This document shows positions 3,026 through 51,619 of a stretch of DNA of 64,000 nucleotides, one piece after another. The stretch is from an uncultured bacterium (GTDB lineage Bacteria; Patescibacteriota; Minisyncoccia; Phycocordibacterales; Phycocordibacteraceae), in contig CAIJZI010000005.1 in the NCBI GenBank assembly GCA_903825105.1, positions 18,821-82,820 of the forward strand. Direction: 5' to 3'. The notes beneath the pieces are model-generated. The model worked only from the letters and a program-made list of their open reading frames with translations. It was not told where the DNA came from and did no database searches. Position 1 is the stretch's first letter. Every line of letters starts with the position of its first letter. Both the position numbers and the translations under genes were made by a program.

Positions 3026-3439
3026 TCAAACAATTTTCTCTCGAATCTTTTCTGCTATTTCTGAGGCAGAGGTTGGAGTAGGGCAGTCCGTCTCGGGCCA
3101 AAATTCGAATTCGTTTCGCGCGTGGCGTGGAATAATATGGAAGTGGAGGTGGTGAACGACTTGTCCGGCCGCCTCGCCGTGATTTGAGTTGATGTGAACG
3201 CCGTGCGCGCCAACAGCATCGCGTACTGCAGGAGAAATCTTTCGTACGGTTCTCATTATTGCCGAGAGCGTCTCGTCGTCTATGTCAAAAATATTTTCAA
3301 AAGGTTTTTTCGGTATGACGAGTGTGTGCCCGAGAGCTATTGGCTTAATATCAAGAAAAGCGAGCGTCTGAGCATCTTCATACACAATGTCAGCCGGTAT
3401 CTCGCGCTTAACAATCTTCATAAAAACGGTATCCTCCAT
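3026..3439 (-). CDS. HIT family (histidine triad) nucleotide hydrolase
   Basis: 137 aa with HHLHFHIIP histidine-triad motif and N-terminal IVKREIPADIVYED. Confidence 0.85.
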   Translation of the reverse strand: MEDTVFMKIVKREIPADIVYEDAQTLAFLDIKPIALGHTLVIPKKPFENIFDIDDETLSAIMRTVRKISPAVRDAVGAHGVHINSNHGEAAGQVVHHLHFHIIPRHARNEFEFWPETDCPTPTSASEIAEKIREKIV

Positions 3440-3483
3440 TGCATTTAATTCTACAACCTATAACCTACTCTCTACAAGCTCCT

Positions 3484-5202
3484 ATGTTTCCGCTTCACGA
3501 CTCACTTGATAAAAATCTTCGAGAAGAATTGTCAGCATATGACGACTTAACTTCTGCACTCCTCGCGAGGCGTGGCATTTTAAAAAAAGAAGAGGCAGAA
3601 AAATTTTTGAATCCTTCGTACGATCTGCATCTCCACGATCCTTTTTTAATGACAGACATGAGAAAAGCTGCAGAGAGATTCGCCGATGCGATTTTAAAAG
3701 GGGAGAGGATCGCCGTGTGGAGCGACTATGACTGCGACGGTGTCCCGGGCGCCGTTATCCTCCACGATTTTCTTAAAAAGGTTGACGCGAATTTTGAAAT
3801 ATATATTCCGCATCGCCACGATGAAGGGTATGGGATGAATGTTGAGGGGATAGAAAAGCTTGCTTCAAATAAGGTAAAACTTATTGTCACCGTCGATTCT
3901 GGGATCACCGATCACGAGCCCGTCTCGCGTGCAAAAGAATTAGGGATTGATGTGATTATTACCGACCATCATTTACCTAAAGAAACATTGCCTGATGCAT
4001 ATGCCATTGTGAATCCGAATGCCAGAGCAGATGAAAAATATCCCTTCCATGAACTCTGTGGTTCTGGCGTCGCGTGGAAATTGGTGTGTGCTGTTCTTTT
4101 TATTTCTCCAACACTCCGAGAAAAAGCTCCGCTTGGTTGGGAGAAATGGCTACTTGATATGGTCGGGCTCGCGACCATTGCCGACATGGTCTCACTCACA
4201 GGAGAAAATCGCGTGCTCGCTACATATGGATTAAAAGTGCTGCGGAAGTCGCCACGAATTGGATTCCAAAAATTGTGTAAAGTGATGCGTGTGAATCAGC
4301 GCCAAATTACCGAAGATGATGTCGGCTTTATGATCGCGCCGCGCGTGAATGCTGCGAGCCGTATGGGTGACGCGTTTGATGCTTTTAAAATGTTTATCAC
4401 TAACGATGAGGGAGAGGCTGAGCTACTCGCGAGTAAATTAGAAAAAATAAATAAACAAAGAAAGGTTGAAGCGGGCGTCATCACGCGCGCCGTGCATACA
4501 AAGTTAAAAGAAAAAAGTGAAATAAGAAATGTCATTGCACTCGGTGATCCGGAGTGGCGGCCAGCACTTCTCGGGCTCGTCGCGGGAACCATCGCAGACG
4601 AATATGAGCGGCCTGTATTTTTATGGGGAAGGGAAGGCAACAATACTTTTAAAGGGTCGGTGCGGAGCGGGAGTGTGCACGCACTCGAGCTGATGCAGGC
4701 AGCTGAAAAAACTTTTGTTGAATTCGGCGGTCACTCAGCAGCCGGCGGTTTCACTGTGCGAGATGACGCGATATTTTTTCTCGAAGATAAATTAGTTGAA
4801 GCATATGAGCGCCTTCCAAAAAAAGAAGAGGTGGATGATATTTCTAATTATGCTGATGCAGTGATCACTCCTGAAGAAGCGAATGAATCATTTTTAAAAA
4901 AGATTGAGAAGCTGTCTCCATTTGGTATGCAAAATGCGAAGCCCGTGTTCCTGCTCCGCGAGATTGTCGTGAGAGAGATTTCACGCTTTGGAAAAGGGAA
5001 GGAACATTTAAAATTAAAAATCAGTTCGCGAGATAAAAATAATAAAATTGATGCGGTCACCTTTTTTGTAAAAGGGAATATTGCGCGCACCATTGAGACT
5101 ATTCAACCAAACGGCGTCGCGACCATTCTCGCGCATCTCGAGCGCGACACCTTCAGCTATGGCAACCCCGTCCGCTTGCGCCTTTTGGATATCAAACTAT
5201 AG
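3484..5202 (+). CDS. recJ: single-stranded-DNA-specific exonuclease RecJ
   Basis: DHH motifs (DYDCDGV, VDSGITDH, ITDHH) and DHHA1-like C-terminus; track ORF begins at TTG 3439, first ATG at 3484. Confidence 0.85.
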   Translation: MFPLHDSLDKNLREELSAYDDLTSALLARRGILKKEEAEKFLNPSYDLHLHDPFLMTDMRKAAERFADAILKGERIAVWSDYDCDGVPGAVILHDFLKKVDANFEIYIPHRHDEGYGMNVEGIEKLASNKVKLIVTVDSGITDHEPVSRAKELGIDVIITDHHLPKETLPDAYAIVNPNARADEKYPFHELCGSGVAWKLVCAVLFISPTLREKAPLGWEKWLLDMVGLATIADMVSLTGENRVLATYGLKVLRKSPRIGFQKLCKVMRVNQRQITEDDVGFMIAPRVNAASRMGDAFDAFKMFITNDEGEAELLASKLEKINKQRKVEAGVITRAVHTKLKEKSEIRNVIALGDPEWRPALLGLVAGTIADEYERPVFLWGREGNNTFKGSVRSGSVHALELMQAAEKTFVEFGGHSAAGGFTVRDDAIFFLEDKLVEAYERLPKKEEVDDISNYADAVITPEEANESFLKKIEKLSPFGMQNAKPVFLLREIVVREISRFGKGKEHLKLKISSRDKNNKIDAVTFFVKGNIARTIETIQPNGVATILAHLERDTFSYGNPVRLRLLDIKL

Positions 5203-5209: not shown

Positions 5210-5632
5210 ATGAATTTTACTATCAATGCCGACGGGGGATCGAGAGGTAATCCGGGAGCTTCAGGAGTTGGCGCGACGATTCGCGATGAGTCAAATACCA
5301 TTGTCGCGACGGTCTCAAAATTTCTTGGCACGCACACCAACAATTTTGCTGAATATGAATCCGTCATTCTCGCTTTTGCAGAGCTCTCAAAAATTGTTCC
5401 GGTTGGGAAAAGAGGCGAGACAAAAGTGATAGTGAAGATGGACAGCGAACTTGTTGTGAAGCAAATGCGTGGCGAGTACAAAGTAAAAAATGCGGATTTA
5501 AAAGAGCAGTACGCACGACTTCTACAAAACATCGGCGCATTCGGGAATGTTTCATTCACTCATGTGCGACGCGAATTAAATAGCGACGCCGACGCGCTCG
5601 CAAACGAAGCGATGGATCGCGGCGCGCATTAG
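5210..5632 (+). CDS. rnhA: ribonuclease HI-like protein
   Basis: 140 aa; N-terminal INADGGSRGNPGASGVG and acidic catalytic residues layout of RNase H type 1. Confidence 0.8.
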   Translation: MNFTINADGGSRGNPGASGVGATIRDESNTIVATVSKFLGTHTNNFAEYESVILAFAELSKIVPVGKRGETKVIVKMDSELVVKQMRGEYKVKNADLKEQYARLLQNIGAFGNVSFTHVRRELNSDADALANEAMDRGAH

Positions 5633-5702: not shown

Positions 5703-6020
5703 TCAAGCGCATTCGCTGAGAGCTTCTTCTTTTTTTCGTTCTTCCTCAAGTCCCTCAACGATCTTGCGATCTTCTTCTTCACTCGGCGCGAAACAGTCCG
5801 GGAAATGCTTGAACTTCTCATAGAAATGTTTGTCGTTCACAAATATTTCGCGGACATATTCATCTCCCGAAGCGATCGAATCAATGCAGTAATCGCAGTG
5901 ATAGGTGCGTTGAGCGACAAACGATTTGGTGGTGCGCAAGAAACGCCAATACAATCTTCGCAGTTTCCTTCGCTTCTTTTCTTCCTCTTTTTTGAACTGC
6001 TGCAAATCAACAACAGCCAT
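5703..6020 (-). CDS. hypothetical charged small protein with CxxC pair
   Basis: 105 aa ORF, lysine/glutamate-rich, HCDYC motif; no recognisable family. Confidence 0.4.
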   Translation of the reverse strand: MAVVDLQQFKKEEEKKRRKLRRLYWRFLRTTKSFVAQRTYHCDYCIDSIASGDEYVREIFVNDKHFYEKFKHFPDCFAPSEEEDRKIVEGLEEERKKEEALSECA

Positions 6021-6070: not shown

Positions 6071-7693
6071 TTGAGTTCTTGCTACCATAGTTTCATGAGG
6101 TTTTTGATTTCTGTCGTCCTTGGATTTGCGAGTGGAATATTTTTGCGCTCGATTTTTATTTTTTCTTGGCCGGTCATTTTGTTTTCACTTCTTCTCGCGA
6201 TTTTATTTTTAACAGCTGCGTTTTTAAAATCGCGCCTTGCGTACACGCTTGGCGCGGTTTTTTGTTTGTTCATAGTTTTCGGAATATTGCGCGCGCAGAC
6301 TGCCGACACGCCACTCCCAAAATCTTTTGCGAGCGAATTACATCATCGTGTTTCGTATGAAGGCGTTGTTGTTTCTGATCCTGACATTCGCGATGCGAAT
6401 CAACGCTTTGAAGTGTCTGTTACAAAAAATGATGCGACAACAAAAATTCTTATTTCTACTCTGCGCACAAAAACAATTTCTGTTGGCGATAAAGTAGAGG
6501 TATCTGGAGTTCTTTTGGTTCCACAAAATTTTTCAACTGATGGTGGCCCTCCTTCGCTTGGCTTCGGCGGGACAAGTAGAGTTTTTAATTATGAAAAATA
6601 TTTACAGCGTGACGGTGTGCGATTCATTATCAATTTTGCTTCAGTAAGTGTTTTACAAAAAGCGCCATGGTATTCAATCTCATCTGCGCTCGCAAAAATA
6701 AAACATTTATTTTTAAATGGACTTTCTGCAACACTGCCCGAGCCGTATGCATCGCTCGCTGGCGGTGTCGTGATAGGAGGGAAGACCGGCCTCGGCACTG
6801 ATTTACAAAATGCATTTATAAAAAGTGGGCTGGTGCAGATCGTTGTTCTCTCTGGATACAATGTGATGATTATAGCCGAGTGGGTGATGGCGCTCCTCGC
6901 ACACACGAAACTTTCTCGCCGGTGGAGCTCGGTCGCTGGCGTGCTCGCGATTATTATTTTTGTCGGCATCGCCGGAGCGTCAGCGACCGCGATTCGTGCG
7001 TCACTTATGGCATTCATCGCGCTCTACGCGCGAGCTACAGGGAAGTCATACGCAGCGGGCCGTGCGCTTCTTCTCGCAGTCTTTCTTATGCTTATTTGGA
7101 ATCCACTTTATCTAGCCTATGATCCAGGATTTGGATTATCGGTAGCGGCGACAGCAGGAATTATTTGGCTCGCACCAGTTATTGAATCGTGGCTCGGTGA
7201 GTGGAGAAAGATTTTTCAGAGTATGCCAAGTGCAGCGAAGCGAAACGCTCTGAAAAATTTTTATCCCGAACAAGAGCCTTCTTTTTGGATAAACACAATC
7301 GCGACAACAATCGCTGCACAAATCGCTGTTCTTCCACTTCTGCTTTATGACACCGGCAATCTTTCATTCGTCGCCATTCCAGCAAATGTGCTCACGATGC
7401 CAATGGTCCCACTTGCGATGGGTCTCTCCGCGCTCGCCGGTTTCGCGGGAATTATTTTTTCAAATATTGTTCCGCTTGTTGGAATTATTTTTGCATTCCC
7501 TGCGTATGTCGCGAATGCGTATCTTATTTTCATCGCAGAAAAATCTGCGTCCCTGCCATTCGCAGCATTCACCCTTCCTGCGTTTCCGTTTTGGCTTGTA
7601 CTCGTCGTTTATGCGGCACTTATTTTCATAGCGTCGTCAAAACGCTTTTCGACGACAGACCAGTCCAAGTTTTCAAAAAAGGCGTCAATATAA
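6071..7693 (+). CDS. comEC: ComEC/Rec2-family DNA internalisation membrane protein (membrane competence domain only)
   Basis: 540 aa polytopic membrane protein; N-terminal DUF4131-like OB region and LAGGVVIGGKTGL competence-domain signature; no C-terminal MBL domain in this ORF. Confidence 0.75.
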   Translation: MSSCYHSFMRFLISVVLGFASGIFLRSIFIFSWPVILFSLLLAILFLTAAFLKSRLAYTLGAVFCLFIVFGILRAQTADTPLPKSFASELHHRVSYEGVVVSDPDIRDANQRFEVSVTKNDATTKILISTLRTKTISVGDKVEVSGVLLVPQNFSTDGGPPSLGFGGTSRVFNYEKYLQRDGVRFIINFASVSVLQKAPWYSISSALAKIKHLFLNGLSATLPEPYASLAGGVVIGGKTGLGTDLQNAFIKSGLVQIVVLSGYNVMIIAEWVMALLAHTKLSRRWSSVAGVLAIIIFVGIAGASATAIRASLMAFIALYARATGKSYAAGRALLLAVFLMLIWNPLYLAYDPGFGLSVAATAGIIWLAPVIESWLGEWRKIFQSMPSAAKRNALKNFYPEQEPSFWINTIATTIAAQIAVLPLLLYDTGNLSFVAIPANVLTMPMVPLAMGLSALAGFAGIIFSNIVPLVGIIFAFPAYVANAYLIFIAEKSASLPFAAFTLPAFPFWLVLVVYAALIFIASSKRFSTTDQSKFSKKASI

Positions 7694-8145
7694 TTTTTCT
7701 TTTCTGCGGGAACATAATCAACCATATACGCATGCTCCCAAAGATCGAGGGCGAGGATAATCGGCAGTCCAGAAAGTTGACCGAGCTCGTGGTCATTCAC
7801 GAAAAGAGTATGCGTCGTATTCATCACTTTGTCATAATAGACAACAACCCAACCGGTGCCACGCGTACCAGCCACTTCTTTTATTTTTGTAATTAATTCT
7901 TGTCTCTCTGTTTTTGGGGCTACAGCCCCGCTCTCAAGCTCTTCAAAATAATATTCATGCATACGCATCCCGTCGAACTCAAAAGCAAATCGATTTGCAC
8001 TATTATTTTCTAACAATAAATTTATATTTTTTACATATCCTTCATAGAGCGCGAGATGCACCTTAATCTGTTCTTCTGAAATTCCTTTTAAAACCGGCAG
8101 ATTGAATGTTTTTGGTATGTAGGTCATAGGTTGTAAATTTACCAT
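7609..8145 (-). CDS. sod: Fe/Mn superoxide dismutase (short form)
   Basis: DLWEHAY motif plus conserved His/Asp ligand positions (IKVH, MRMHEYYF); C-terminal overlap of about 85 nt with convergent comEC ORF. Confidence 0.7.
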   Translation of the reverse strand: MVNLQPMTYIPKTFNLPVLKGISEEQIKVHLALYEGYVKNINLLLENNSANRFAFEFDGMRMHEYYFEELESGAVAPKTERQELITKIKEVAGTRGTGWVVVYYDKVMNTTHTLFVNDHELGQLSGLPIILALDLWEHAYMVDYVPAEKKNYIDAFFENLDWSVVEKRFDDAMKISAA

Positions 8146-8156
8146 ATAATTTATAG

Positions 8157-8666
8157 ATGCAGCGATTACCGAAAATTTTCTATACGGTCCTTATTTTAAT
8201 ACTCATCGCGGCAAACATTTGTGTCTACCAAACTATTTTTACTCCTCACACGCTTCAAATCTCTGTACTTAATGTTGGAAAGGGGAATTCAGTTCTTATT
8301 CGCACGCCAAATAAAAAGACTATCCTTATAGACACCGGCCCAGACGCGAGCATCTTACGCGCGCTTGGCACGACACTCCCCGAATGGCAGCGAACTATCG
8401 ACATTATTATTCTCACGGGAACCAAATCAAACTTCACGGGCGGTCTGCCCGAGGTTCAGAATAAATATCACACACCAACTCATATTTATTTTGGCACTCC
8501 AGCTTTCCCATATGGCTCACAAATTTCTCTTGATTCTGTTTCTATAAAAATAATTGCCCCCGCGACTCTCACCATCTCTTTCGGCTCTGCTTCACTCCAA
8601 ATCTCATCCTCCACACCAAAGGGCGTGTATGCACCAGACGGGAAGGGAATTATTAAAAAGAATTAG
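8157..8666 (+). CDS. membrane-anchored metallo-beta-lactamase-fold protein resembling the ComEC C-terminal domain, metal-binding motif degenerate
   Basis: LNVGKGNSVLIRTP..ILIDTGPD matches ComEC MBL start (LDVGQGDA); expected HxHxDH position reads LTGTKSNFTGG. Confidence 0.5.
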   Translation: MQRLPKIFYTVLILILIAANICVYQTIFTPHTLQISVLNVGKGNSVLIRTPNKKTILIDTGPDASILRALGTTLPEWQRTIDIIILTGTKSNFTGGLPEVQNKYHTPTHIYFGTPAFPYGSQISLDSVSIKIIAPATLTISFGSASLQISSSTPKGVYAPDGKGIIKKN

Positions 8667-8688
8667 GCGCTCCCTTACGGGAGCGCCT
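8665..8688. terminator. hairpin aggcgctccc-ttac-gggagcgcct between convergent genes
   Basis: 10-bp perfect stem, 4-nt loop. Confidence 0.6.
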
Positions 8689-8736
8689 ATGCTGCTATTT
8701 CCTTTTCTTACTTACCCAGTAGGTGATTGTGCTCAA

Positions 8737-8979
8737 TCAAATAACCTTCGCTTTTTTGAGTGCTGCAAATGCGCCGTTTTTCTTGATTGTTTTAAGCCCC
8801 TTCACCGAGACATTGAGGATGACGGTCTTGCCGATTTCTGCGACATAGACACGGCGTTTCTGGATATTCGCCTTTCTGCGGACCTTGCCGGTCGGGTTGA
8901 ATTGGGTCGCGCGGGTACGATTAGAATACCGCCCGCCGATTTGCGTGCTCTTTCCGGTTATTGCGCAGGTGCGTGCCAT
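8737..8979 (-). CDS. rpmB: 50S ribosomal protein L28
   Basis: MARTCAITGK...typical L28 N-terminus, 80 aa. Confidence 0.9.
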   Translation of the reverse strand: MARTCAITGKSTQIGGRYSNRTRATQFNPTGKVRRKANIQKRRVYVAEIGKTVILNVSVKGLKTIKKNGAFAALKKAKVI

Positions 8980-9017
8980 AGTTGCCCTATGGTAGCATAC
9001 GATACGATAGACGCAAT

Positions 9018-9668
9018 ATGACCACCGCCATTACCCTCATTATCCTTATTCTTTCCGTCATTATGCACGAAGTGGCGCACGGCTATGCCGCGAATTCGCT
9101 TGGCGACCCAACAGCCCGTCTCGCTGGCCGTTTGACTCTCAATCCGATCCCACACATTGATCTCATGGGCTCTATTATTATTCCTGGCCTCCTTGTTTTA
9201 ACGGGCTCGCCAATGCTCTTCGGCTGGGCGAAGCCGGTGCAGTATAATCCATACAATCTTCGCAATCATCGCTGGGGAGAATTTTTTGTTGCTGTCGCTG
9301 GAGCGTGTACAAATATCTCTCTTGCTATTATTTTTGGACTTATTGTTCGTTTTGGCTCGACTGCACTCGCCACAGGTGGCTCTACTATATTCTCGCCAAC
9401 GGCTATTTCTCTCGCTGCGACAATTGCCTTTATAAATCTTTTCCTCGGCATATTTAATCTCATCCCTTTTCCACCGCTCGACGGCTTCACCGCGCTTCGC
9501 TCGGCACTCCCGTGGCGCTTTTCTATCAGTTTTGCTAAATTCGAACACTCTATTCGTAGTATGGGCGTTATTTCTCTTATTCTTTTCTTATTCATCTTCT
9601 CATTTATCTTATCTGGGCCATTCTTCGCTTTTGTTTCTTGGATATTCAGATTTATAACTGGTGTATAG
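9018..9668 (+). CDS. site-2 protease family zinc metalloprotease (peptidase M50)
   Basis: HEVAHG (HExxH) in first TM segment and NLIPFPPLDG motif; ORF trimmed to ATG 9018. Confidence 0.75.
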   Translation: MTTAITLIILILSVIMHEVAHGYAANSLGDPTARLAGRLTLNPIPHIDLMGSIIIPGLLVLTGSPMLFGWAKPVQYNPYNLRNHRWGEFFVAVAGACTNISLAIIFGLIVRFGSTALATGGSTIFSPTAISLAATIAFINLFLGIFNLIPFPPLDGFTALRSALPWRFSISFAKFEHSIRSMGVISLILFLFIFSFILSGPFFAFVSWIFRFITGV

Positions 9669-10038: not shown

Positions 10039-10458
10039 GTGATGGAGTATCAGGTACCTCAATTTATTGAAGTTGAAAACAAAATTGTCGGGCCATTGAC
10101 CTTGAGACAATTTATTTACCTAGCTGGTGGGGCAGGGCTGTGTGTTCTGTTCTTTGTTTATTTACCGATAATTTTTGCCCTTTTGTTTTCGGCGCTCGCT
10201 GTTGCCTTTGCGGTCGCACTCTCTTTTTATAAGGTAAATGGAAAGCCTTTTATCGAAGTGCTCGAAGCTGGATTCAACTATTACACTGGCGCAAAACTCT
10301 TTCTCTGGAAAAGAAGAGATCCCGAGGCACAAAAAAATACACTGGCAAAAGTAGAGCCAGAAGTACAGAAAACAGAGAGAATAACCCGAGGGAAGCTCTC
10401 TGAGCTCGCGTGGTCTCTCGATGTCTCTTCTGGTGGCAAGCAGGAAGACCAAAAATAA
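10039..10458 (+). CDS. PrgI/VirB3-like small membrane protein of T4SS-like operon
   Basis: N-terminal PQFIEVENKIVGPLTLRQFIYL followed by two TM helices, as in PrgI-family proteins that precede VirB4 ATPases. Confidence 0.5.
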   Translation: MMEYQVPQFIEVENKIVGPLTLRQFIYLAGGAGLCVLFFVYLPIIFALLFSALAVAFAVALSFYKVNGKPFIEVLEAGFNYYTGAKLFLWKRRDPEAQKNTLAKVEPEVQKTERITRGKLSELAWSLDVSSGGKQEDQK

Positions 10459-10459
10459 T

Positions 10460-11095
10460 ATGCCTACACCAAAATCAAATGCGACACAGCAGTTCGTCCC
10501 CGTTAAAGAGATAAAAAACGGCGTCATTATTCTTAAAGATGGTACTTACCGAGGAGTGCTTATCTGTTCAGCGATCAACTTCGGACTTAAGTCTGCGGAC
10601 GAACAGCACGCTATAGTTCTTGGTTTTCAGAATTTTTTAAATATGCTCGATTTTTCTATACAGATAGTGGTGAACTCACGGAAAATGGATTTGCGACCCT
10701 ATCTCGCTCTTCTAGCAGGGAAGGCAGTAGATCAGAAGACGGAGCTTATGCGCATTCAACTCAGAGAATATACCGAGTTCATTCGCTCATTCGCGGAGCA
10801 GTCAAACATAATGACAAAATCGTTTTACATCATCGTACCGTATTCTCCACACGCCTCTACCGCACACACTATGAACTTTCTTAAACGAGAGAGTGATGCT
10901 GTTAAAAATGCTGAGGCAACTACCTCTTTCGGAGAAAGTCGCGCACAACTCGAACAACGAATGTCTCTTATTTCTGGAGGGCTATCAAGAACGGGGGTTC
11001 GCGCGGTGCCGCTTAATACAGAAGAAGTGGTCGAGCTTCTATACCGGTCATTTAATCCAGGAGAATTGGAGAATCCTATTAGACTAGATGTATGA
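10460..11095 (+). CDS. VirB4 N-terminal-domain-like protein (separate ORF)
   Basis: FVPVKEIKNGVIILKDGTYRGVLICSAINFGLKSADEQ resembles CagE/TrbE/VirB4 N-terminal domain of Gram-positive-type VirB4s; ATG 10460 immediately after upstream stop. Confidence 0.4.
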   Translation: MPTPKSNATQQFVPVKEIKNGVIILKDGTYRGVLICSAINFGLKSADEQHAIVLGFQNFLNMLDFSIQIVVNSRKMDLRPYLALLAGKAVDQKTELMRIQLREYTEFIRSFAEQSNIMTKSFYIIVPYSPHASTAHTMNFLKRESDAVKNAEATTSFGESRAQLEQRMSLISGGLSRTGVRAVPLNTEEVVELLYRSFNPGELENPIRLDV

Positions 11096-11125
11096 GATTT
11101 ACACTTTTAAATATTTAAATATCTT

Positions 11126-12943
11126 ATGGCATTACTCGATTTCCTAAATAATAAAAAAGAAAAAGAACGGGAAATAATTCCTGTGCTTCCAAAAGATATT
11201 TATAAGCAGGGAACACTAGACTTGGTAGACACTATAGCGCCAACAGCGCTTCTCGTTGGCTCGCGCGAATTACAACTGGGAGAAAAGTTTGTGCGCGCTT
11301 TTTATACCATTTCATATCCACGATTTCTTTCTGATAGTTGGTTCTCGCCGATTATAAATCTCGACAAGGTTCTCGACGCGTCTATATTCATTCACCCCGT
11401 AGAGACAGAGCAGGCGCTTCGTGGATTCCAGAAAAAAGTCGCCGAAGTACAAAGTCAAATCAGCGAGCGTGAATCAAAAGGCCTTGTGCGCGACCCAATG
11501 CTCGACACAGCATACCAAGATCTCGAGAATTTAAGAAACGACCTCCAACAGGCTCAAGAAAAGCTCTTTGATGTCGGACTCTATTTGTCACTTTATGGTG
11601 ATACGAAAGAAGAGATTGATAAAACAGAAGGGGACATACGCGGCATTCTCGACGCAAAATTGGTGTATACGAAGCCAGCACTCTTCCAACAAGAGCAGGG
11701 ATTCCGTTCCTGCCTCCCGCTCGGAACCGATGAACTTTTGGTCAATTCTAAACTAAATTCGTCGCCACTCTCTTCACTTTTCCCCTTCGTCTCTTTCGAT
11801 CTCACGAGCGACCGTGGCATTTTGTATGGTATAAACAGACACAACTCTTCGCTTGTTCTCTTCGATCGTTTCTCGCTCGAAAATTATAATTCAGTCATAT
11901 TCGCCAAATCAGGTTCTGGTAAGTCGTATGCGACGAAGCTCGAAATCTTGCGTTCGCTTATGTTTGGTACCGATGTTATTGTCATCGACCCAGAACGAGA
12001 ATATGACCAGCTCGCTGAATCGACAGGGGGTCGCTCATTTCACATCTCTCTTTCTTCAGAACATCACATCAATCCGTTTGACCTGCCTCCAGTAAAAGAG
12101 GATGAAGACCCGAAAGATATTCTGCGTTCAAACATCATCGCTCTCGTAGGGCTCTTCCGTATTATGCTTGGCGGTCTCACACCAGAAGAAGATTCTATTA
12201 TCGATCGTGCGATTAGCGAGACCTACGCACTGAAAGACATCACTGGAGACGCTGACTTTACTGGTGCCGAATCGCCGCTACTTTCAGATTTTGAACAAGT
12301 TCTTTCGGGCATGGAAGGGAGCGAGTCGCTCGTCGAGAGACTTTCGAAGTATACGCGCGGGAGCTGGTCAGGCTTTATGAATCAGCCCACCAATATCGAC
12401 CTCAAACAACAATTCGAAATTTTCTCGGTACGCGATATGGAGGATGAGCTTAAGCCAGTGGCGATGTATATCATCACACACTTCATCTGGAATGCGATAC
12501 GCAGAGAGGTTAAGAAGCGCCTGCTGGTTATCGACGAGGCGTGGTGGATGATGAAGAGCGAGGATACCGCGAGCTTCTTGTATTCACTCGCGAAGCGTGG
12601 GCGTAAATATTACATTGGGGTCTGCACCATAACACAAGAAGTTGAAGATTTCGTTAATTCACAATATGGGAGAGCGATATTGAATAATTCATCACTCCAA
12701 CTCCTATTGAAACAGTCTCCGACTTCTATTGATGCACTCCAAAATACTTTTAAATTAACCGATGAGGAAAAATATCTCTTGCTCGAAGCTGGAGTAGGGG
12801 AGGGGCTCTTCTTCGCCGGACTAAAACATGTCGCTATTAAAATCGTCGCCAGTTACACCGAAGATCAGATTATTACTTCAGACCCGTCGCAGCTTCTCGC
12901 GATAAAGGAAGAGAAGGATCGCCATGCAGCAGAACAAAAGTAG
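11126..12943 (+). CDS. VirB4/TraC-family conjugal-transfer-type ATPase (ATPase domain)
   Basis: Walker A AKSGSGKSY (~11911), Walker B LLVIDEAWWMM with VirB4-hallmark DEAW (12532..12543); 605 aa. Confidence 0.75.
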   Translation: MALLDFLNNKKEKEREIIPVLPKDIYKQGTLDLVDTIAPTALLVGSRELQLGEKFVRAFYTISYPRFLSDSWFSPIINLDKVLDASIFIHPVETEQALRGFQKKVAEVQSQISERESKGLVRDPMLDTAYQDLENLRNDLQQAQEKLFDVGLYLSLYGDTKEEIDKTEGDIRGILDAKLVYTKPALFQQEQGFRSCLPLGTDELLVNSKLNSSPLSSLFPFVSFDLTSDRGILYGINRHNSSLVLFDRFSLENYNSVIFAKSGSGKSYATKLEILRSLMFGTDVIVIDPEREYDQLAESTGGRSFHISLSSEHHINPFDLPPVKEDEDPKDILRSNIIALVGLFRIMLGGLTPEEDSIIDRAISETYALKDITGDADFTGAESPLLSDFEQVLSGMEGSESLVERLSKYTRGSWSGFMNQPTNIDLKQQFEIFSVRDMEDELKPVAMYIITHFIWNAIRREVKKRLLVIDEAWWMMKSEDTASFLYSLAKRGRKYYIGVCTITQEVEDFVNSQYGRAILNNSSLQLLLKQSPTSIDALQNTFKLTDEEKYLLLEAGVGEGLFFAGLKHVAIKIVASYTEDQIITSDPSQLLAIKEEKDRHAAEQK

Positions 12944-13589
12944 CCCCAAGTTACCGCAAAACAGAAATCGCGGCACGGTACCCAGAAGGAATAGTGGTTC
13001 TAGCCCTCCACCGACGATGACTTGGGGTAAAGCGTCGCCGGTTTTGGTAGTGGCAGTTATCTTTGATTTGGCACGAAACTTTTTCGAATGGTTTTGGCTT
13101 TTTGGGCCGGCGCTCTTCGCTGTCGGGTGTACCGCAGGGATGAATAGTTATATAGGAACGACCATCACACAGCTTTCTGGTAAGGCTGTCGCGGTAGGCT
13201 GTATGGCTCTCGCTGGAGTGGCTGGATATTTTGGCGTTGAAGTTACCGAGGGATTTGGCATTATGATGGCGGCATTTGTTGGGTTCACTGGTTTTTTAAC
13301 TTTGCTTCTTTTGATTTCAATGACCAATTCTCGTTTGTTTAAAGTAAATCCGCGCGGGATGTTTTCTTTTGTGGGAAGTTTTGGCGTATGCGAAGTTCCT
13401 TTTGTTGGAGCAATCCCAGCTTTTTCGATCAGTCTTTATTTGTTGTACCGAAGACAGATAAAAATAGAAAAAGCAGCACTCAAAGCATGGAAGAAAGAAC
13501 AGGAAGAAAATAAACAGAATGAAAGAGCTGGTCAAATCACAGAGTTTATACAAATGCGCGATGCCCAACTAGCTTATGGCGAGATATAA
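12924..13589 (+). CDS. polytopic membrane protein of T4SS-like operon (possible VirB6-like component)
   Basis: 4-5 predicted TM helices; overlaps VirB4 stop by 20 nt. Confidence 0.35.
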   Translation: MQQNKSSPKLPQNRNRGTVPRRNSGSSPPPTMTWGKASPVLVVAVIFDLARNFFEWFWLFGPALFAVGCTAGMNSYIGTTITQLSGKAVAVGCMALAGVAGYFGVEVTEGFGIMMAAFVGFTGFLTLLLLISMTNSRLFKVNPRGMFSFVGSFGVCEVPFVGAIPAFSISLYLLYRRQIKIEKAALKAWKKEQEENKQNERAGQITEFIQMRDAQLAYGEI

Positions 13590-14601
13590 TGAATCTATGC
13601 GTTTTATTTTTCCACTCGCTTTAACTCTTCTCATTCTGCCTTCTGTAGCATTCGCTCAATTTTTAGGAGGAGATGCACTTGATGAGAGCACTGCCTTCTC
13701 TGCTTCGATAGACCCACAGTATCCAGCGCCGTATACCAATGCGACACTTTCTGTTCTTTCAGCATCTCTTGACCTCGCGAATGCGACAATGAAAGTTTCT
13801 GTAAATAAAAAACAAATCTATTCTGGAAGCGTCCAAGATCTTTCTATTCGTCTTGGCGGTGCAGGGAATATGACAAAAATAGATGTGACGATTTCATCTT
13901 CTGGGAAAAGCTATACCCAAAACCTCTCTGTTCAACCACAAGATGTGGTGCTCGTAGCCGAGCCACTATCTTCTGCTCCACCACTCTACCCAGGGAAGAC
14001 ACTGGTGCCTCTCGAAGGGAGTGTGCGTGTTGTCGCTATGGCAAATCTCCGAGATACAAAAGGGAAAGCCATCGATCCTGCGACCCTCTCATACTCTTGG
14101 ACGGTTGATGAAACGAGTCTCTCAAATGCATCTGGGATTGGGAAAAGTGCGATTATTGTAGATTCCCCATTTAAGTACCGCTCGACAGATGTATCCGTGT
14201 CGATAAAGAGCCAAGACGGCTCACTTGTTGGCGGAGACTCTTTGTCGCTCGTTGCCTCTGACCCAGTCATCCGTGTGTATGAAAACGATCCACTCCTCGG
14301 TATTGTCTTTAACCGCGCCATTTCAGGAAATTATAAAATCACTTCATCTGAAGATTCGCTCTATGCCGCTCCATTCTCTATGCCAACCTCTTCTGGACTA
14401 CCGGTTATTCAATGGTTTTTAAATGGTGACCTCGCACAAACCGGAAAGACAATAACACTGCGCCCAACAGGAAGCGGGCAGGGGAGCGCTTCTCTCTCGC
14501 TCATCGCGTCTTCAGGAGAATCAACACGAGCGACTCAAGAATTCTCGCTCTCTTTTGGCGCGATACAGAGTAGCGTGCTTAATAAATTATTTGGACTATG
14601 A
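13576..14601 (+). CDS. secreted protein with signal peptide, T4SS-like operon
   Basis: MRFIFPLALTLLILPSVAFA signal peptide (alt start 13597); Ser/Thr-rich beta-type sequence. Confidence 0.4.
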   Translation: MARYNESMRFIFPLALTLLILPSVAFAQFLGGDALDESTAFSASIDPQYPAPYTNATLSVLSASLDLANATMKVSVNKKQIYSGSVQDLSIRLGGAGNMTKIDVTISSSGKSYTQNLSVQPQDVVLVAEPLSSAPPLYPGKTLVPLEGSVRVVAMANLRDTKGKAIDPATLSYSWTVDETSLSNASGIGKSAIIVDSPFKYRSTDVSVSIKSQDGSLVGGDSLSLVASDPVIRVYENDPLLGIVFNRAISGNYKITSSEDSLYAAPFSMPTSSGLPVIQWFLNGDLAQTGKTITLRPTGSGQGSASLSLIASSGESTRATQEFSLSFGAIQSSVLNKLFGL

Positions 14602-15869
14602 AAAAAATTATTTTTCTATTCTTGATTCTTTCTTTATCTCTTTCTCTCCCGCATTTTGCATTTGCACAACAAGTTGGAGAAGTTGGGGATACTTGTAAAA
14701 CACCAAACGATTGTTCTGTGGATTATTGTGTTAACAATGTTTGTAGTGCCGGAGAAGCGGGAGATGTTTGCAATGGAAATGGTGATTGCTCTGGAGATCT
14801 AACTTGTAAAAATAAAGTCTGTGCTAGTACAAGTTCCTCAAATACGCAATCAACAACACAAGCGAAAACAAATGGATTCACCGCGCTCGCGCCAATACCA
14901 GGCCTCACAGATAAATCGAGTACCGCTTTGGTAAATTCAGACAGTCTCGCAAACTTCTTTAACAATCTTTATAAATATCTTATCGGCCTCGCCGCGATCT
15001 TGGCGATTATACAGATAATGTGGGCGGGCTTTGATATGGCTTGGGAACACAAGGATTCGGTGAGTGCGATAACTGATGATAAAGGGAGGATTAAAAACGC
15101 CATTTTTGGACTTGTTCTTATCCTCTCTCCGGCCGTTATCTTCTCTATCATTAATCCAAGTATTCTGAACTTATCTATCGGCCTCCAACCGCTTGATATG
15201 TCGAAGACTACTATGGATTCAAGTGGATCTGGAACAGGTAATGATCTTTTGACACAGGACGGCAAACCTCCAATTACACAAACTAAATCAACCTCAGGAT
15301 GCGCGACAGCTACAAATGGTCCTCTGAGTGGAACTTTTTATACAACATGTACAGCTACGGATGAAAAAACCGCATCTAGCGAAGCCGCATCCTATGTGGC
15401 AGCTAATTGTCCTACAAGCGGCACGAAAACTGGAGGGGCGTATGCTGCTGTTGGATCTGATGAGAAGACAACAATGGACTCAAATAATAATATTAAAAAA
15501 TATTATTCTACATATTCTGCAAAAGCTTGGTGTAGCCAAATTATTAAAATAACTGGCGTATACCAAAAAAGTTTGATGAATTCTGAAATTTCTAATCTAA
15601 TAGGTTATTTCAACGCATCAGATGCGATTGGAAATATAAATCCTGATAAAGTGTGTGGTAATTGGTCTTTATCTGGCAGTTTTAAGGTGGATAATTTTTC
15701 ATCATCAGCTGGATTGGATAATTCAGGCGGGTATGGTTCTGACAATCTTGGTCCATGTCCTAGTGACGATTCTTTCCAGAAATGGTTTCTTGCACTTAAA
15801 GGGAAAAATGATCTATATGTACCAACATGCGGGGACACAAGCTTCTATTGCGTAATGCCTATTAATTAA
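14598..15869 (+). CDS. Cys-rich secreted protein containing a VirB2/TrbC-like hydrophobic helical hairpin
   Basis: signal peptide, Cys-rich module (CKTPNDCSVDYCVNNVC...), then LIGLAAILAIIQIMWAGFDMAW...IFGLVLILSPAVIFSII two-helix hairpin; ATGA overlap with upstream gene. Confidence 0.4.
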   Translation: MKKIIFLFLILSLSLSLPHFAFAQQVGEVGDTCKTPNDCSVDYCVNNVCSAGEAGDVCNGNGDCSGDLTCKNKVCASTSSSNTQSTTQAKTNGFTALAPIPGLTDKSSTALVNSDSLANFFNNLYKYLIGLAAILAIIQIMWAGFDMAWEHKDSVSAITDDKGRIKNAIFGLVLILSPAVIFSIINPSILNLSIGLQPLDMSKTTMDSSGSGTGNDLLTQDGKPPITQTKSTSGCATATNGPLSGTFYTTCTATDEKTASSEAASYVAANCPTSGTKTGGAYAAVGSDEKTTMDSNNNIKKYYSTYSAKAWCSQIIKITGVYQKSLMNSEISNLIGYFNASDAIGNINPDKVCGNWSLSGSFKVDNFSSSAGLDNSGGYGSDNLGPCPSDDSFQKWFLALKGKNDLYVPTCGDTSFYCVMPIN

Positions 15870-15870
15870 C

Positions 15871-17103
15871 ATGAAACGCTTCCTTCTCATCCTCATAACA
15901 CTCATCATCCTCATCGGAGTTGGGGTATTTATTTATTTCTACTTCTTCGCCAATAAAGCGACGGTTGTCGTTGCTCCTCCTGGTACGACAACACTCCCGA
16001 TCTCTGGAAATAATGGAACGACACAATCTGGTGGTGGAAATAAAAACCCAAATTCATCAGCTTCGAGTATCCCAGTGTCAGTCGCGCCGAGACTCGTCGA
16101 GATAAATGCCGGGCCGGTCGTGAATGGGGAAGTGGTGCTCGATGTTTCTATTAAAAATGCCACAACCTCTGCCTCAACTACTCCCGTAATAAGCTCGGAT
16201 GTTATCGCTAAATATATCGAGCGCGAAAGTGGCAATGTTTTTTCCTATTCAGTAAAAGACAATAAGAATACGCGCGTGAGTAATAAGACACTCCCCGGGA
16301 TTCAGTCAGCGACTTGGCTGCCAAATGGATTAACTGCATTTGTTCGTTACCTATCAGGAAATGATTTTTCTACCATAAACACCTATGCTTTCATGGCAGA
16401 TGGTTCTAACGGATTCTTTTTACAACAAAATCTCTCTAGTATCGATATCTCTTCGACGAGTGTCCTTATGCTCGCTTCTGGAGTAAATGGCTCATCAGCT
16501 TCTCTCGCGAACACCGACGGCACCAAAGCCTCAAATGTGTTCACAACACCGCTTTCACAGCTTCGTGTGTCATTCGCTGGTAAAAAATATCTCGCCTACA
16601 CCAAACCGTCTTCTGGGATAGATGGATATGCATTTATTGTTGATTCGACAGGCCACTTCTCGAGAATCGCTGGGCCCCGTAGCGGTCTTACCGCTCTCGC
16701 GAGCCCTTCTGGCGCGTGGGTACTCTTAAGTTACCCTCTCAACAACGACCTCCAAATGGAGCTCGTGAACACCTCAACAGGAGAGATTGTCTCTCTTCCG
16801 GTCGCGACTATCGCTGACAAGTGTGTATGGACGAATGATGAATCTTCTATTTATTGTGGCATCCCGACAAATGTTTCGAGTGATGCCTCGTATCCTGATG
16901 ATTGGTATCAAGGGGCGTTCCAATTTTCAGACCGAATCTGGAAGATAGATGTTTCTGGCAGATTTGCTCAACTCACACTCGACTTTTCAAGTGCGACAAA
17001 TGGAGTTTCTCTCGACGCTGTCGCTCTCTCGGTTGACCAAAATAATACCGAACTTGTTTTTATGAACAAAAACGACAACTCTCTTTGGGGCTATCAGCTC
17101 TAG
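15871..17103 (+). CDS. membrane-anchored extracytoplasmic protein, last gene of T4SS-like operon
   Basis: N-terminal TM anchor then 380 aa Ser/Thr-rich domain; no family recognised. Confidence 0.35.
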   Translation: MKRFLLILITLIILIGVGVFIYFYFFANKATVVVAPPGTTTLPISGNNGTTQSGGGNKNPNSSASSIPVSVAPRLVEINAGPVVNGEVVLDVSIKNATTSASTTPVISSDVIAKYIERESGNVFSYSVKDNKNTRVSNKTLPGIQSATWLPNGLTAFVRYLSGNDFSTINTYAFMADGSNGFFLQQNLSSIDISSTSVLMLASGVNGSSASLANTDGTKASNVFTTPLSQLRVSFAGKKYLAYTKPSSGIDGYAFIVDSTGHFSRIAGPRSGLTALASPSGAWVLLSYPLNNDLQMELVNTSTGEIVSLPVATIADKCVWTNDESSIYCGIPTNVSSDASYPDDWYQGAFQFSDRIWKIDVSGRFAQLTLDFSSATNGVSLDAVALSVDQNNTELVFMNKNDNSLWGYQL

Positions 17104-17106: not shown

Positions 17107-17847
17107 TTACACCTTCTCACTTACACCTTCTTTTACTCCTCTCCTAACATAGAGCTCTTGTAGTGTGCCGACGATATTTGTTGTGATGAAGTAGAGCGCC
17201 ACCGCTCCTGAGGTTGTGTACGAAATAACAGCAATAAGAAAGGGGAAGACATACTTTAATTGCATTCCCATCATCTGTTGGAATCCTGCCTGCATTCCGC
17301 TTCCGTCTCCTGATGGCTTCATGGTCCCCGAGAGGGCGAAATGTGCTTGAAGGAATTGTGTTACGCCAGCCAAAATCGCCAACAAAATACTTTTCCCTGC
17401 GACAGAAATTATTCCTAAAAATTCTAGAGAAATGGTGTGTGGAATTGGTGTTATCGCGTACAATCTCGCTGTGTTTATAACAGAAAATGGTTCATAGCAA
17501 AAAACCCAATAGAGTGCGAGGAGGACTGGAATTTGAATAAACACCGTTAGAATACTCGCGAAGGGATTCACTTTTGCATCTTTATATAAAGCGAGTGTTT
17601 CTATAGCTTCTTTTTCTTTATCGCCCTTGTGCTTTTCTTTTAATTCTTTTAATTTAGGTTCCAGGACTTTCATCGCGCGCTGTGTTCTGACTGCCGACAA
17701 AGAGAAGGGGAGGAGAATCAAACGAATGATGATAGTGATGAGAATAACCGCGACACCCACATCGCCTTTTGGAATAAAAGCGACAAGCGCTACGAGAGCG
17801 TTATATATCGGATTATAAAAAACGGCGTGAAAAAAAGCTGAAATCAC
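17107..17847 (-). CDS. yidC: membrane protein insertase YidC (short form)
   Basis: 246 aa, YNPIYNALV...IRLILLPF...KVNPF motifs of YidC/Oxa1; in rpmH-rnpA-yidC cluster. Confidence 0.85.
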   Translation of the reverse strand: MISAFFHAVFYNPIYNALVALVAFIPKGDVGVAVILITIIIRLILLPFSLSAVRTQRAMKVLEPKLKELKEKHKGDKEKEAIETLALYKDAKVNPFASILTVFIQIPVLLALYWVFCYEPFSVINTARLYAITPIPHTISLEFLGIISVAGKSILLAILAGVTQFLQAHFALSGTMKPSGDGSGMQAGFQQMMGMQLKYVFPFLIAVISYTTSGAVALYFITTNIVGTLQELYVRRGVKEGVSEKV

Positions 17848-17865
17848 AGGTGGTTGGATTAATTT

Positions 17866-18168
17866 TTATATTTTAGAAATAAGATCTATGAGTTCTTTTT
17901 CTATATCCTGATAGTGTACACCCTCTAGTTTAGAACGCGAAAAAACAATAAGCGATGGTGGTAATTTCTGTTTTTTGAGAGCTCCGATGATGCGCCGCTT
18001 TATTTTATGCCTGTCGACAGAGAGCTTGGCTACCTTTTTGGGCACCACAACAGCATATCCTGCCACCTCTTTAGAAACAGTGGCGGTAAAGTGGGTAGAA
18101 GAGAATCTGCGCCCTTTTAGTACGAGAGGGAATGTTGCTCGCGTCAGCCTATAACTGCGCTTAAACAC
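17866..18168 (-). CDS. rnpA: ribonuclease P protein component
   Basis: 100 aa basic protein, position between rpmH and yidC, RnpA-like KLSVDRHKIKRR. Confidence 0.85.
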   Translation of the reverse strand: MFKRSYRLTRATFPLVLKGRRFSSTHFTATVSKEVAGYAVVVPKKVAKLSVDRHKIKRRIIGALKKQKLPPSLIVFSRSKLEGVHYQDIEKELIDLISKI

Positions 18169-18172
18169 GGGT

Positions 18173-18310
18173 TTAGACGGCTAAACTGGCCCTTCCTGCT
18201 CTTCGTCGCCCTTTTATAATCTTACGGCCAGAACTGGTTGCCTTTCGAGCAAGAAATCCATGCGTCGTTGCGCGCTTCTTTTTCTTTGGTTGGTAGGTTC
18301 TTTTTGGCAT
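18173..18310 (-). CDS. rpmH: 50S ribosomal protein L34
   Basis: [45 protein letters not shown]; track ORF trimmed to ATG at 18310. Confidence 0.85.
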
Positions 18311-18401
18311 ATTAAATAGGTGTTTATCCACACATAGTACCAGATTCTGCACAAAACACCATTTTGTCCTAGTTTTATGAAAAGAGTATACTCTGGGCAC
18401 G
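18311..18401. promoter_or_regulatory. oriC / divergent promoter region between rpmH and dnaA with perfect DnaA box TTATCCACA at 18324..18332
   Basis: consensus 9-mer read directly; classic rpmH|dnaA location. Confidence 0.6.
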
Positions 18402-19754: not shown

Positions 19755-19877
19755 TACCTTTCAACACACTATCAACAGGTTTAGGGTATAATGAAGAAAG
19801 AAAGAAGCTTGTATTTAATGGTTATTTTTTACTTCTCCACATATCAACACCCTTAATAGAAACATCATAAGAATTTT

Positions 19878-25852: not shown

Positions 25853-25890
25853 AGGCTAGGAGATGATTTTGTCTCCTAGCCTTTCTTTTT
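25853..25890. terminator. hairpin aggctaggagat-gatttt-gtctcctagcct + T-run between convergent small ORF and pilB
   Basis: 12-bp stem. Confidence 0.6.
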
Positions 25891-38826: not shown

Positions 38827-39303
38827 CTACTTTTGCAGTGTAGCGCTAAGCCAACTTTTTTCCAAATAATGCTTTTCTGCATGGCAATTTGGGCAAAGTA
38901 ATTCCAAATTGCTTAATTCATTGTGATTTCTGTTTTTATCTTTGTGATGAACATTCAGAATTTCTTTTTTGTTATAGCCACACATCTCACATTTTTCTCC
39001 CCGTAAAGCAAAAAGTCGTAACTTAAGCGAACGCTGATCCTTAACTTTATCTTTCGGGCGCCCAATTTTATAACGAATTCCTGCTCGATGTATATTTGCA
39101 CAACGCCTGCTACACGTTTTTGCATTCATTCTTGCGAGAATCGGCGTCCCACAGACAGCACACGGCGTCTCTTTTCTATTGGCAATTCCATAGCATTCCT
39201 TACCACAAAAAACTCGACCACGCTTTATTTCAGTTGGGCGTCTATAAATTGGCTTAGCACAAACTCCGCACTTAACATTTGGATTTCTTTTATAATTATC
39301 CAC
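38827..39303 (-). CDS. HNH endonuclease with N-terminal zinc-ribbon repeats
   Basis: three CxxC...C repeats then HHKDKNRNHNELSNLELLCPNCH HNH motif; stop 4 nt from tRNA-Ser 5' end. Confidence 0.8.
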   Translation of the reverse strand: MDNYKRNPNVKCGVCAKPIYRRPTEIKRGRVFCGKECYGIANRKETPCAVCGTPILARMNAKTCSRRCANIHRAGIRYKIGRPKDKVKDQRSLKLRLFALRGEKCEMCGYNKKEILNVHHKDKNRNHNELSNLELLCPNCHAEKHYLEKSWLSATLQK

Positions 39304-42943: not shown

Positions 42944-42977
42944 TAAATAAAAGATTAGAATATGGTATTATAACCCT

Positions 42978-51522: not shown

Positions 51523-51562
51523 AAGCAAACGCGGCGGCCTCTGGCCGCCGCGTTTGCTTTTT
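51523..51562 (+). terminator. intrinsic terminator aagcaaacgcggcggcc-tctg-gccgccgcgtttgctt + TTT
   Basis: 17-bp stem; directly after rplK, no rplA follows. Confidence 0.7.
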
Positions 51563-51619
51563 GTCTCTCCAGCGCGTAGAGTCGATTTGGATAGTTCCAA
51601 AAATACAAAGGAGTTTATC

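Follow-up and report, generated by a model that had tools for sequence, protein, structure and literature searches.

A membrane-anchored remnant of the ComEC nuclease domain encoded beside comEC in Kaiserbacteria-like Patescibacteria

Introduction

ComEC is the universal DNA-import channel of natural transformation, and it is thought to be a lifeline in the Patescibacteria, which cannot make nucleotides. A stretch of 64,000 nucleotides (nt) from an ultra-small, Kaiserbacteria-like member of this group (contig CAIJZI010000005.1; the whole stretch is called the window below) carries a comEC gene without the usual nuclease domain. It is followed by a superoxide dismutase gene (sod) on the opposite strand, and then by a short open reading frame (ORF) that resembles the start of a metallo-beta-lactamase (MBL) domain. 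This raises the question of what the short ORF is: part of ComEC encoded as a second gene, a relic, a protein with another task, or an artefact. The three genes concerned are as follows.

6071-7693, plus strand: comEC (channel part), 540 amino acids (aa) from TTG
7609-8145, minus strand: sod, Fe/Mn-type superoxide dismutase (SOD), 178 aa
8157-8666, plus strand: comEC-C remnant, a membrane-anchored, truncated MBL-like ORF, 169 aa

Sequence and structure comparisons firmly place the origin of the last ORF, here called the remnant, in the ComEC MBL nuclease domain. The explanation that we consider probable, with some reserve, is a two-gene ComEC, in which the remnant most likely serves as a non-catalytic extracytoplasmic subunit of the channel.

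A ComEC channel without a nuclease domain

The channel protein was found to contain an OB fold (DUF4131, PF13567; 55.3 bits, residues 32-193) and a Competence domain (PF03772; 142.7 bits, residues 234-522), and Lactamase_B was absent from 6071-7693 in the Pfam scan. Its AlphaFold2 (AF2) model has a beta-barrel at residues 93-196, with OB-fold matches in Foldseek. The full-length ComEC equivalog model TIGR00361 gives 46.1 bits against a cut-off of 190. Pfam and TIGR00361 therefore agree with a preliminary description of this DNA, which held that the ORF, ending at 7693, lacks the nuclease domain. The homologues start at the counterpart of Met9, which makes the ATG at 6095 the more probable start of comEC. 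The same description allowed that the gene might simply be truncated by assembly, but 119 of the 120 best ComEC homologues are equally short, at ~500 aa with DUF4131 and Competence and without an MBL domain, which argues that the shortness is genuine.

Origin of the remnant from the ComEC nuclease domain

In the remnant, Lactamase_B (PF00753) was matched at residues 40-87 only, with 21.9 bits against 22.7, below the gathering threshold. Parts of TIGR00361 and PRK11539 that span the last transmembrane (TM) helix and the start of the nuclease domain were matched as well. Two alignments then link the remnant to solved structures, namely a profile of the remnant family (A1) and an alignment of nine intact stand-alone TM+MBL proteins (A7). 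A1 aligns with A7 over 152 columns with an hhalign probability of 99.9% and E 1e-31, while A7 matches the solved ComEC nuclease domains 9ic4 (E 7e-58) and 30bt (residues 512-794, E 4e-57, TM helix included). In a direct profile search with A1, ComEC chains rank first (E 2e-4). Furthermore, tblastn with two intact MBL proteins gave a sole match in the window, at 8223-8588 (E 4e-20 and 2e-18).

In the AF2 model of the remnant (predicted local distance difference test, pLDDT, 78; predicted template modelling score, pTM, 0.68), a TM helix (residues 6-28) leads into a domain made up largely of beta strands. Foldseek ranks 9ic4 first among PDB structures (E 7e-6), and the matches after it are all other MBL folds. 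The ORF had been described as a degenerate MBL domain, a reading that would fall if structure prediction gave no MBL fold; the predicted structure appears to be of MBL type, with the ComEC nuclease domain as its closest match, and the profile alignment to ComEC-type MBLs bears the description out. The anchor belongs to the same homology.

8172-8240, plus strand: N-terminal TM anchor, residues 6-28, an AF2 helix with the basic stretch MQRLPK before it

In alignment, its counterpart in full-length ComEC is the TM helix just before the MBL domain (TIGR00361 positions 424-468), and through the A7 profile the anchor also matches 30bt from residue 512 on. The evidence from profiles and predicted structure is thus firm that ORF 8157-8666 derives from the ComEC MBL nuclease domain.

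Loss of the metal site and truncation

8412-8444, plus strand: degenerate motif 2, LTGTKSNFTGG, residues 86-96, in place of T-H-x-[HD]-x-D-H-x-G-G

The reading of the metal site as LTGTKSNFTGG was confirmed by alignment to the solved ComEC nuclease domains, in which this segment faces T-H-P-D-A-D-H-I-G-G. The catalytic residues of the M. glycerini protein were defined experimentally as H598, D600, D602, H603, D700 and H725 (PMC12455585). In the remnant, G88, K90, N92 and F93 replace H598, D600, D602 and H603, and the family consensus is LTGxKxxxxGG. Motif 4 (FLFTGDA, with the bridging Asp D700) reads SSSTP/ISSSTP, aligned to LFTGDA by hhalign, so that a Ser/Thr faces D700, and the segment of motif 5 (HHGS/H725) is deleted. 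No invariant His or Asp was found in the catalytic segments among 30 remnant-family members. In addition, ~120 residues of the canonical MBL fold are missing (169 aa vs ~290 aa), so that the remnant is, as aligned, truncated as well as mutated. Since all metal ligands are gone, it is predicted to be a truncated pseudo-enzyme that is catalytically dead.

Intermediate forms of this decay were found among the 7,986 matches of the remnant-family profile in 1.84 billion representative proteins, of which the best 150 are all stand-alone proteins of 80-320 aa. The sampled matches form a graded series. It starts with proteins of ~290-300 aa that have an N-terminal TM helix and intact motifs ILIDGGPD, LTHPHxDH, FLFTGDA and KVGHHGS, and continues with proteins of ~280-298 aa, in which the fold length is unchanged and the motifs are replaced. 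Proteins of ~230 aa follow, and finally the family of 165-170 aa that includes the window protein.

Conservation of the remnant and of its locus

Homologues of the remnant fall into more than 185 clusters at 90% identity, almost all of 160-175 aa, and the named clusters come from Kaiserbacteria, Paceibacteria or Minisyncoccota. Across 30 diverse members, 23 positions are invariant and the consensus reads ...LIDTGPDASILRALGxALPxWQRxIDAVILTGxKxxxxGGLPEV...PYG...ISSSTPKGVY.

8601-8624, plus strand: ISSSTPKG, the most conserved C-terminal motif of the family, with S150, S151 and T153 invariant

The ratio of nonsynonymous to synonymous substitution (dN/dS, Nei-Gojobori) was 0.14-0.24 for the remnant, for example 0.21 in the pair L007/L018 and 0.20 in L024/L026 (L numbers denote loci), and 0.08-0.17 for ComEC in the same pairs. 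The many clusters of near-uniform length, together with these ratios, indicate a functional gene. By these measures the remnant is a real gene kept by purifying selection, neither a pseudogene nor an artefact.

One might still take the 169-aa ORF for a relic of the ComEC nuclease domain that has no function, goes on eroding and awaits deletion. Every catalytic residue has been lost, the domain shrinks stepwise through ~285, 220 and 165 aa, with 150 aa reached in some lineages, the Pfam scores lie below threshold, and dN/dS is about twice that of ComEC. The ratios nevertheless amount to clear purifying selection, the ORF is intact at near-constant length in the clusters counted above, and 23 positions are invariant across the 30 diverse members. 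The gene is also kept in streamlined genomes of ~1 Mb even after loss of sod, and it was once re-fused to comEC in frame. We therefore regard a mere relic as improbable.

The setting of the gene is conserved as well, and it includes the following neighbours.

3439-5202, plus strand: recJ (Pfam), upstream of comEC
5210-5632, plus strand: RNase H gene (Pfam), between recJ and comEC
8737-8979, minus strand: rpmB (L28), downstream of the remnant
8982-9668, plus strand: M50 site-2 protease gene, downstream of rpmB

The remnant family is present in 32 of 33 genomic loci taken from species-representative genomes. By tblastn and ORF analysis, the order RecJ-RNaseH-ComEC-<SOD-MBL-<L28-M50 was found in ~24 loci, and the layout recurs in ~30 independent assemblies overall; the upstream synteny with recJ and the RNase H gene is kept in ~28 loci, and the remnant adjoins comEC on the same strand in ~30. 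The comEC|<sod|MBL layout with a tail-to-tail overlap of 47-94 nt was seen in ~27 other assemblies from different studies, which places the arrangement far beyond chance. The source is a metagenome-assembled genome (MAG), and single contigs can carry frameshifts, so the split, the truncation and the overlap might be suspected to be assembly or frameshift artefacts of one MAG. The probability of this is negligible, as the same architecture occurs in ~30 assemblies of unrelated projects, the best ComEC homologues are almost without exception as short, and sod, on the opposite strand, is both complete and conserved. The artefact and pseudogene readings were rejected on these comparative data, that is, the recurrent layout, the uniform family and dN/dS.

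Order of events at the comEC|MBL junction

The preliminary description had ComEC split from its MBL domain by the convergent sod gene. This part of it did not stand, because relatives have split ComEC|MBL pairs without sod (L042/L043 and L032) and the sod clade is nested inside them. In L042/L043, a comEC of 485-497 aa without MBL is followed by an intact MBL gene of 293 aa, with no sod; the ATG of the latter overlaps the comEC stop as TAATG, and by this overlap the intact L042 gene is judged to be translationally coupled to comEC. Two unrelated opposite-strand genes lie between comEC and the intact MBL gene in L041 (1-4873), and in L034/L037 the intact gene is located away from comEC. L032 has comEC and then a degenerate MBL gene of 280 aa (ITTDHAIGHIGG), again with no sod. 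In L036 and L044 the order is comEC-<sod-MBL, with an MBL degenerate yet full-length (280-286 aa) and an overlap of 47 nt in a different phase; in L038 the order is the same and the MBL has 232 aa.

In a simple neighbour-joining tree of ComEC, built without support values, these states are nested in a regular manner: intact MBL without sod, degenerate MBL without sod, sod with an MBL of 280-286 aa, an MBL of 220-262 aa, and a crown group with an MBL of 150-206 aa, to which the window belongs. The split pairs without sod and the nested sod clade indicate that fission and catalytic decay preceded the insertion of sod. The order read from these loci, from the tree and from an alignment of the MBL series (A6) is thus a split with intact MBL, catalytic decay, sod insertion and, finally, truncation from ~285 to 220 to 165 aa.

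The loci L001, L003/L005 and L028 have no sod, and their place within the crown group points to secondary sod losses. In L003 and L005, the comEC stop overlaps the remnant start by 4 nt. In L028 (5471-7456), comEC and the remnant are fused in frame into a protein of 660 aa (P0121), the linker of which still carries an antisense fossil of the SOD C-terminus. L020 (2436-7231) has a 2.2-kb insertion between comEC and sod, each of which keeps a copy of the overlap sequence. The distribution of sod in Patescibacteria is patchy and follows oxygen exposure (PMC8672522), with which repeated sod loss fits.

An intact ComEC-type MBL or EndA-like nuclease elsewhere in the genome might carry out the catalysis, in which case the adjacent remnant would be a degenerate paralogue rather than the orthologue. 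In fact, intact stand-alone TM+MBL genes can lie away from comEC, beside the nucleoside diphosphate kinase gene ndk (L034, L037). L037 has the order ProRS-MBL-NDK, and the window ends within a prolyl-tRNA synthetase (ProRS) gene of the same orientation (63719-64000). However, the 64-kb window contains no HxHxDH or HxDxDH ORF, Pfam scans of ~70 of its proteins found no other MBL or EndA-type nuclease (Endonuclease_NS), and no intact nuclease of either type lies within +/-7 kb of 32 related Kaiserbacteria-like loci. The positional series from L042 (intact, adjacent) through L032 and L044 to the window also favours orthology. A paralogue of this kind is unlikely, although it deserves to be taken seriously, and the remnant is treated below as the orthologue.

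Some further observations concern these junctions. Rearrangements have recurred at the comEC|MBL junction (L028, L020, L041, L025), and in L025 ~2.7 kb is inserted between sod and the remnant. L009 (2258-2798) and L010 (21-278) come from two MAGs that are close relatives, labelled Adlerbacteria and Kaiserbacteria. Their sod, which lies between comEC and the remnant, is matched by tblastn in pieces or over a shortened stretch, and the longest ORF in L009 has 131 aa; these copies may be pseudogenes in the process of loss. The ndk gene lies near the intact MBL gene in all four contexts (L034, L037, L041, L042/L043), which hints at a pairing of DNA-uptake and nucleotide-salvage genes in these lineages.

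The sod gene and the antisense overlap

7609-7693: comEC/sod tail-to-tail overlap, 85 nt

The overlap of the convergent sod gene with the 3' end of comEC, estimated before at about 85 nt, has just this length. The ComEC tail VYAALIFIASSKRFSTTDQSKFSKKASI and the SOD C-terminus NYIDAFFENLDWSVVEKRFDDAMKISAA are antisense to each other, and the two frames share their third codon positions; more closely, the stretch ...SSKRFSTTDQSKFSKKASI of ComEC lies opposite the conserved C-terminal helix ...YIDAFFENLDWSVVEKRFDDAMKISAA of SOD. Overlaps of 64-94 nt occur in ~24 loci, all in the same relative phase as in the window, and basal lineages have an overlap of 47 nt in another phase. The SOD matches Sod_Fe_C with 57.7 bits, with its N-terminal domain below Pfam detection, and alignments to 1coj and 19 relatives show all four metal ligands (His, His, Asp, His) in place.

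At the other end, the start codons of sod and the remnant stand back to back with 11 nt between them (8145-8156), and the spacers of related loci are also very short, at 11-30 nt. A perfect TATAAT at 8145-8150 shares nucleotides with the sod start and stops 6 nt short of the ATG at 8157, which suggests that the remnant may be transcribed as a leaderless transcript. A scan for sigma-70 promoters gave no enrichment, with 9 sites vs 5.2 +/- 2.5 expected.

This close spacing implies a shared control region and bears on a further explanation, in which the remnant would have taken on a new role unrelated to DNA uptake, for example as a membrane-anchored binding module, possibly co-regulated with sod. 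The conserved family-specific motifs PYG and ISSSTPxGxY, absent from intact nucleases, would be accounted for in this way. On the other hand, the gene persists when sod is lost, its start then overlapping the comEC stop by 4 nt (L003, L005); it is fused to ComEC in L028; and in its TM anchor and N-terminal half it has diverged little from the intact ComEC partner proteins. Such a change of role therefore seems rather unlikely.

Two observations on sod stand apart. An imperfect palindrome, GTCGTCAAAACGCTTTTCGACGAC, lies at 7631-7656 inside the overlap; through it both strands encode K-R-F (SKRFS in ComEC, EKRFD in SOD), and with both stop codons lying downstream of it, it is no simple terminator of comEC or of sod. 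The window SOD has 178 aa vs 196-227 aa in the 19 aligned relatives, with ~29 residues missing in two blocks, the tip of the N-terminal helical hairpin and part of the interdomain helix, and with DLWEHAY intact. This SOD could be a compact form of the enzyme, or one that has begun to decay.

A possible function of the remnant at the channel entrance

In the proposed two-gene ComEC, gene 1 (6071/6095-7693) would supply the OB fold and the membrane channel, and gene 2 (8157-8666) would be orthologous by position to the stand-alone, membrane-anchored ComEC nuclease found directly downstream of comEC in related Patescibacteria. Within the Kaiserbacteria-like clade, gene 2 has lost all metal-binding residues and been shortened stepwise from ~290 to ~165 aa, and purifying selection still keeps it. 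Its product would sit N-in/C-out in the membrane and, with the OB fold, contribute to building or stabilising the DNA entrance; the non-imported strand would be degraded, if at all, by an enzyme encoded elsewhere. The sod gene is a later passenger, inserted into the comEC|MBL junction in opposite orientation, and the comEC frame now reaches its stop codon within sequence antisense to the 3' end of sod. What the comparisons show is the homology, the loss of catalytic residues, the truncation, the conservation, the synteny and the sequence of events, while the membrane topology, the association with ComEC and the non-catalytic role are inferences.

The topology may be judged from charged residues. 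The ComEC tail is basic, and the remnant starts with MQRLPK and a hydrophobic helix of 22 residues; by the positive-inside rule, the break would fall on the cytoplasmic side, in the loop that joins the last channel helix to the anchor helix. The split point would then have the same topology as in fused ComEC, with the MBL module carried outside. Solved structures of full-length ComEC show the MBL domain on a flexible tether, placed by a small interface with an OB-fold loop; it gives residues to the channel entrance, and its loops were proposed as strand-separating pins (PMC13539106; PMC12455585). A flexible tether and so small an interface make a separately encoded MBL module structurally plausible, and the existence of intact two-gene versions argues that a separate module works in nature. 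Purifying selection, constant adjacency to comEC, start/stop coupling where sod is absent and a natural re-fusion tie the remnant to ComEC rather than to sod. Physical binding of the remnant to the ComEC channel is suggested indirectly, by conserved synteny, the 4-nt overlap and one natural fusion.

Several points weigh against this proposal. A single-chain AF2 model of window ComEC plus remnant (pLDDT 80, pTM 0.67, MBL part 81-95) is silent on docking, and the TM helix of the remnant has low confidence in it. The remnant evolves ~2x faster than ComEC by dN/dS, and its length keeps falling across the clade, to 150-206 aa in the crown group, which could also mean slow decay. The search for an intact nuclease covered the 64-kb window and the +/-7 kb of related loci, and the order of events leans on the simple ComEC tree described above. 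With these points considered, the last step of the proposal, that the remnant is a non-catalytic structural or DNA-guiding subunit of the channel, is given a little better than an even chance.

A stronger version, in which the dead, half-size remnant is an obligatory subunit of the split ComEC and acts as a gate or strand-separating 'pin' at the channel mouth, is offered tentatively and is rather doubtful at present. If true, the MBL module would have an essential non-nuclease role, and a large clade of Patescibacteria would import DNA without ComEC-coupled strand degradation or by means of another nuclease. The neighbouring type IV secretion and pilus machinery might then take part, as in H. 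pylori.

Whatever its exact role, the locus offers a clean natural experiment on a non-catalytic role of the ComEC MBL module. It shows a large clade with the nuclease as a separate gene, which Pfam-based domain surveys record merely as nuclease domain absent, and a natural dissection series that runs from an intact and coupled form through a dead full-length form to half size, with one re-fusion. That selection has retained a dead stump speaks for a task of the module at the channel entrance other than catalysis, a possibility that recent ComEC structures had brought up, and the series points to a minimal fragment of ~140 residues. The locus is also a clean, clade-wide case of conserved antisense overlap between the 3' ends of protein-coding genes, with 'fossil' copies left after sod loss.

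Other features of the window

8664-8689: 11-bp GC-rich hairpin between the convergent MBL-remnant and rpmB genes
10039-10458, plus strand: PrgI
11126-12943, plus strand: VirB4/TraG-type ATPase
14598-15869, plus strand: TrbC/VirB2-type pilin domain
25889-27559, minus strand: PilB-type ATPase, a type IV pilus gene
40408-41517, plus strand: PilM, a type IV pilus gene

The hairpin is likely a bidirectional terminator. Upstream of comEC, a Cys/His-containing, Lys/Glu-rich ORF of 105 aa (5703-6020, minus strand), which has no family match, lies between the RNase H gene and comEC; the spacing of these two genes varies from 0 to ~1.5 kb among relatives, so this slot accepts insertions too. Directly downstream of the locus is a type IV secretion system (T4SS)-like cluster (10039-17103, plus strand); in nearly every related locus its first two genes keep synteny with the comEC block. 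After the cluster come yidC, rnpA, dnaA and dnaN (17107-20978), and the dnaA/dnaN group indicates that the locus adjoins the replication origin; a T4SS close to oriC in Paceibacteria has already been published (PMC12102498). The type IV pilus genes of the window indicate that the genome has the usual pilus part of the DNA-uptake machine. Several small unannotated ORFs after PilM (41521-43289) could be PilN/O-like or pilins.

Elsewhere, ThyX (51554-53008, plus strand) is unusually long at 484 aa, with the Thy1 domain at residues 57-254 only. A free-standing LAGLIDADG-like ORF follows rplS (45221-45931, plus strand), and a small HNH endonuclease ORF (38827-39303, minus strand) and a ParE-type toxin ORF (57579-57866, plus strand) are also present.

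Comparison with known ComEC systems

With canonical three-domain ComEC, as in B. subtilis and Moorella/Neomoorella (9ic4, 30bt/32ks, 9vc6), the window system shares the OB fold, the channel, the TM helix and a homologous N-terminal MBL half. It differs in that two polypeptides are made, the equivalents of H-x-D-x-D-H, D700 and H725 are absent, and ~120 MBL residues are deleted. Also related are the stand-alone TM-anchored ComEC-type MBL nucleases of other Patescibacteria-like lineages (for example P0389, P0347 and P0344), which have the same N-terminal anchor and the LIDxGPD...LP.W.R.ID core, and which lie directly downstream of comEC in L042/L043. Unlike the remnant, these nucleases have ~290 aa with THPxxDH, GDA and HHGS intact, and match Lactamase_B with 62 bits.

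The MBL domain of S. pneumoniae ComEC is inactive, and the membrane nuclease EndA acts in trans (Baker 2016, PMC5031224; Stedman 2025, PMC12455585). Both systems thus retain a ComEC-associated MBL module without metal ligands, a loss after which strand degradation must fall to something else. In S. pneumoniae, however, the domain is full-length and fused to the channel, whereas here it is a separate gene of half size with its own TM anchor, and no EndA-type gene was seen in the window. ComEC of H. pylori has no MBL domain and ends just before it (PMC5031224; PMC12455585), and such 'DC profile' proteins (DUF4131 and Competence without Lactamase_B) are common, with 14 of 51 known competent strains (Pimentel & Zhang 2018, PMC6299819). 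The channel polypeptide of the window likewise stops just before the nuclease domain, and a Pfam survey of single polypeptides would score it as 'MBL lost'; unlike in DC-profile ComECs, the lost domain survives next door as a sub-threshold remnant. The type IV secretion cluster nearby (10039-17103) recalls ComB plus ComEC of H. pylori, a likeness by gene adjacency alone.

In the literature covered, which is incomplete and makes this a weak negative, no account was found of a two-gene ComEC, a stand-alone TM-anchored ComEC nuclease or a truncated pseudo-nuclease partner. In conclusion, the parts of ComEC and the general theme of nuclease-domain loss are already known, while the gene fission, the conserved half-size pseudo-enzyme and the clade-wide antisense overlap with an inserted sod are distinctive of this locus.

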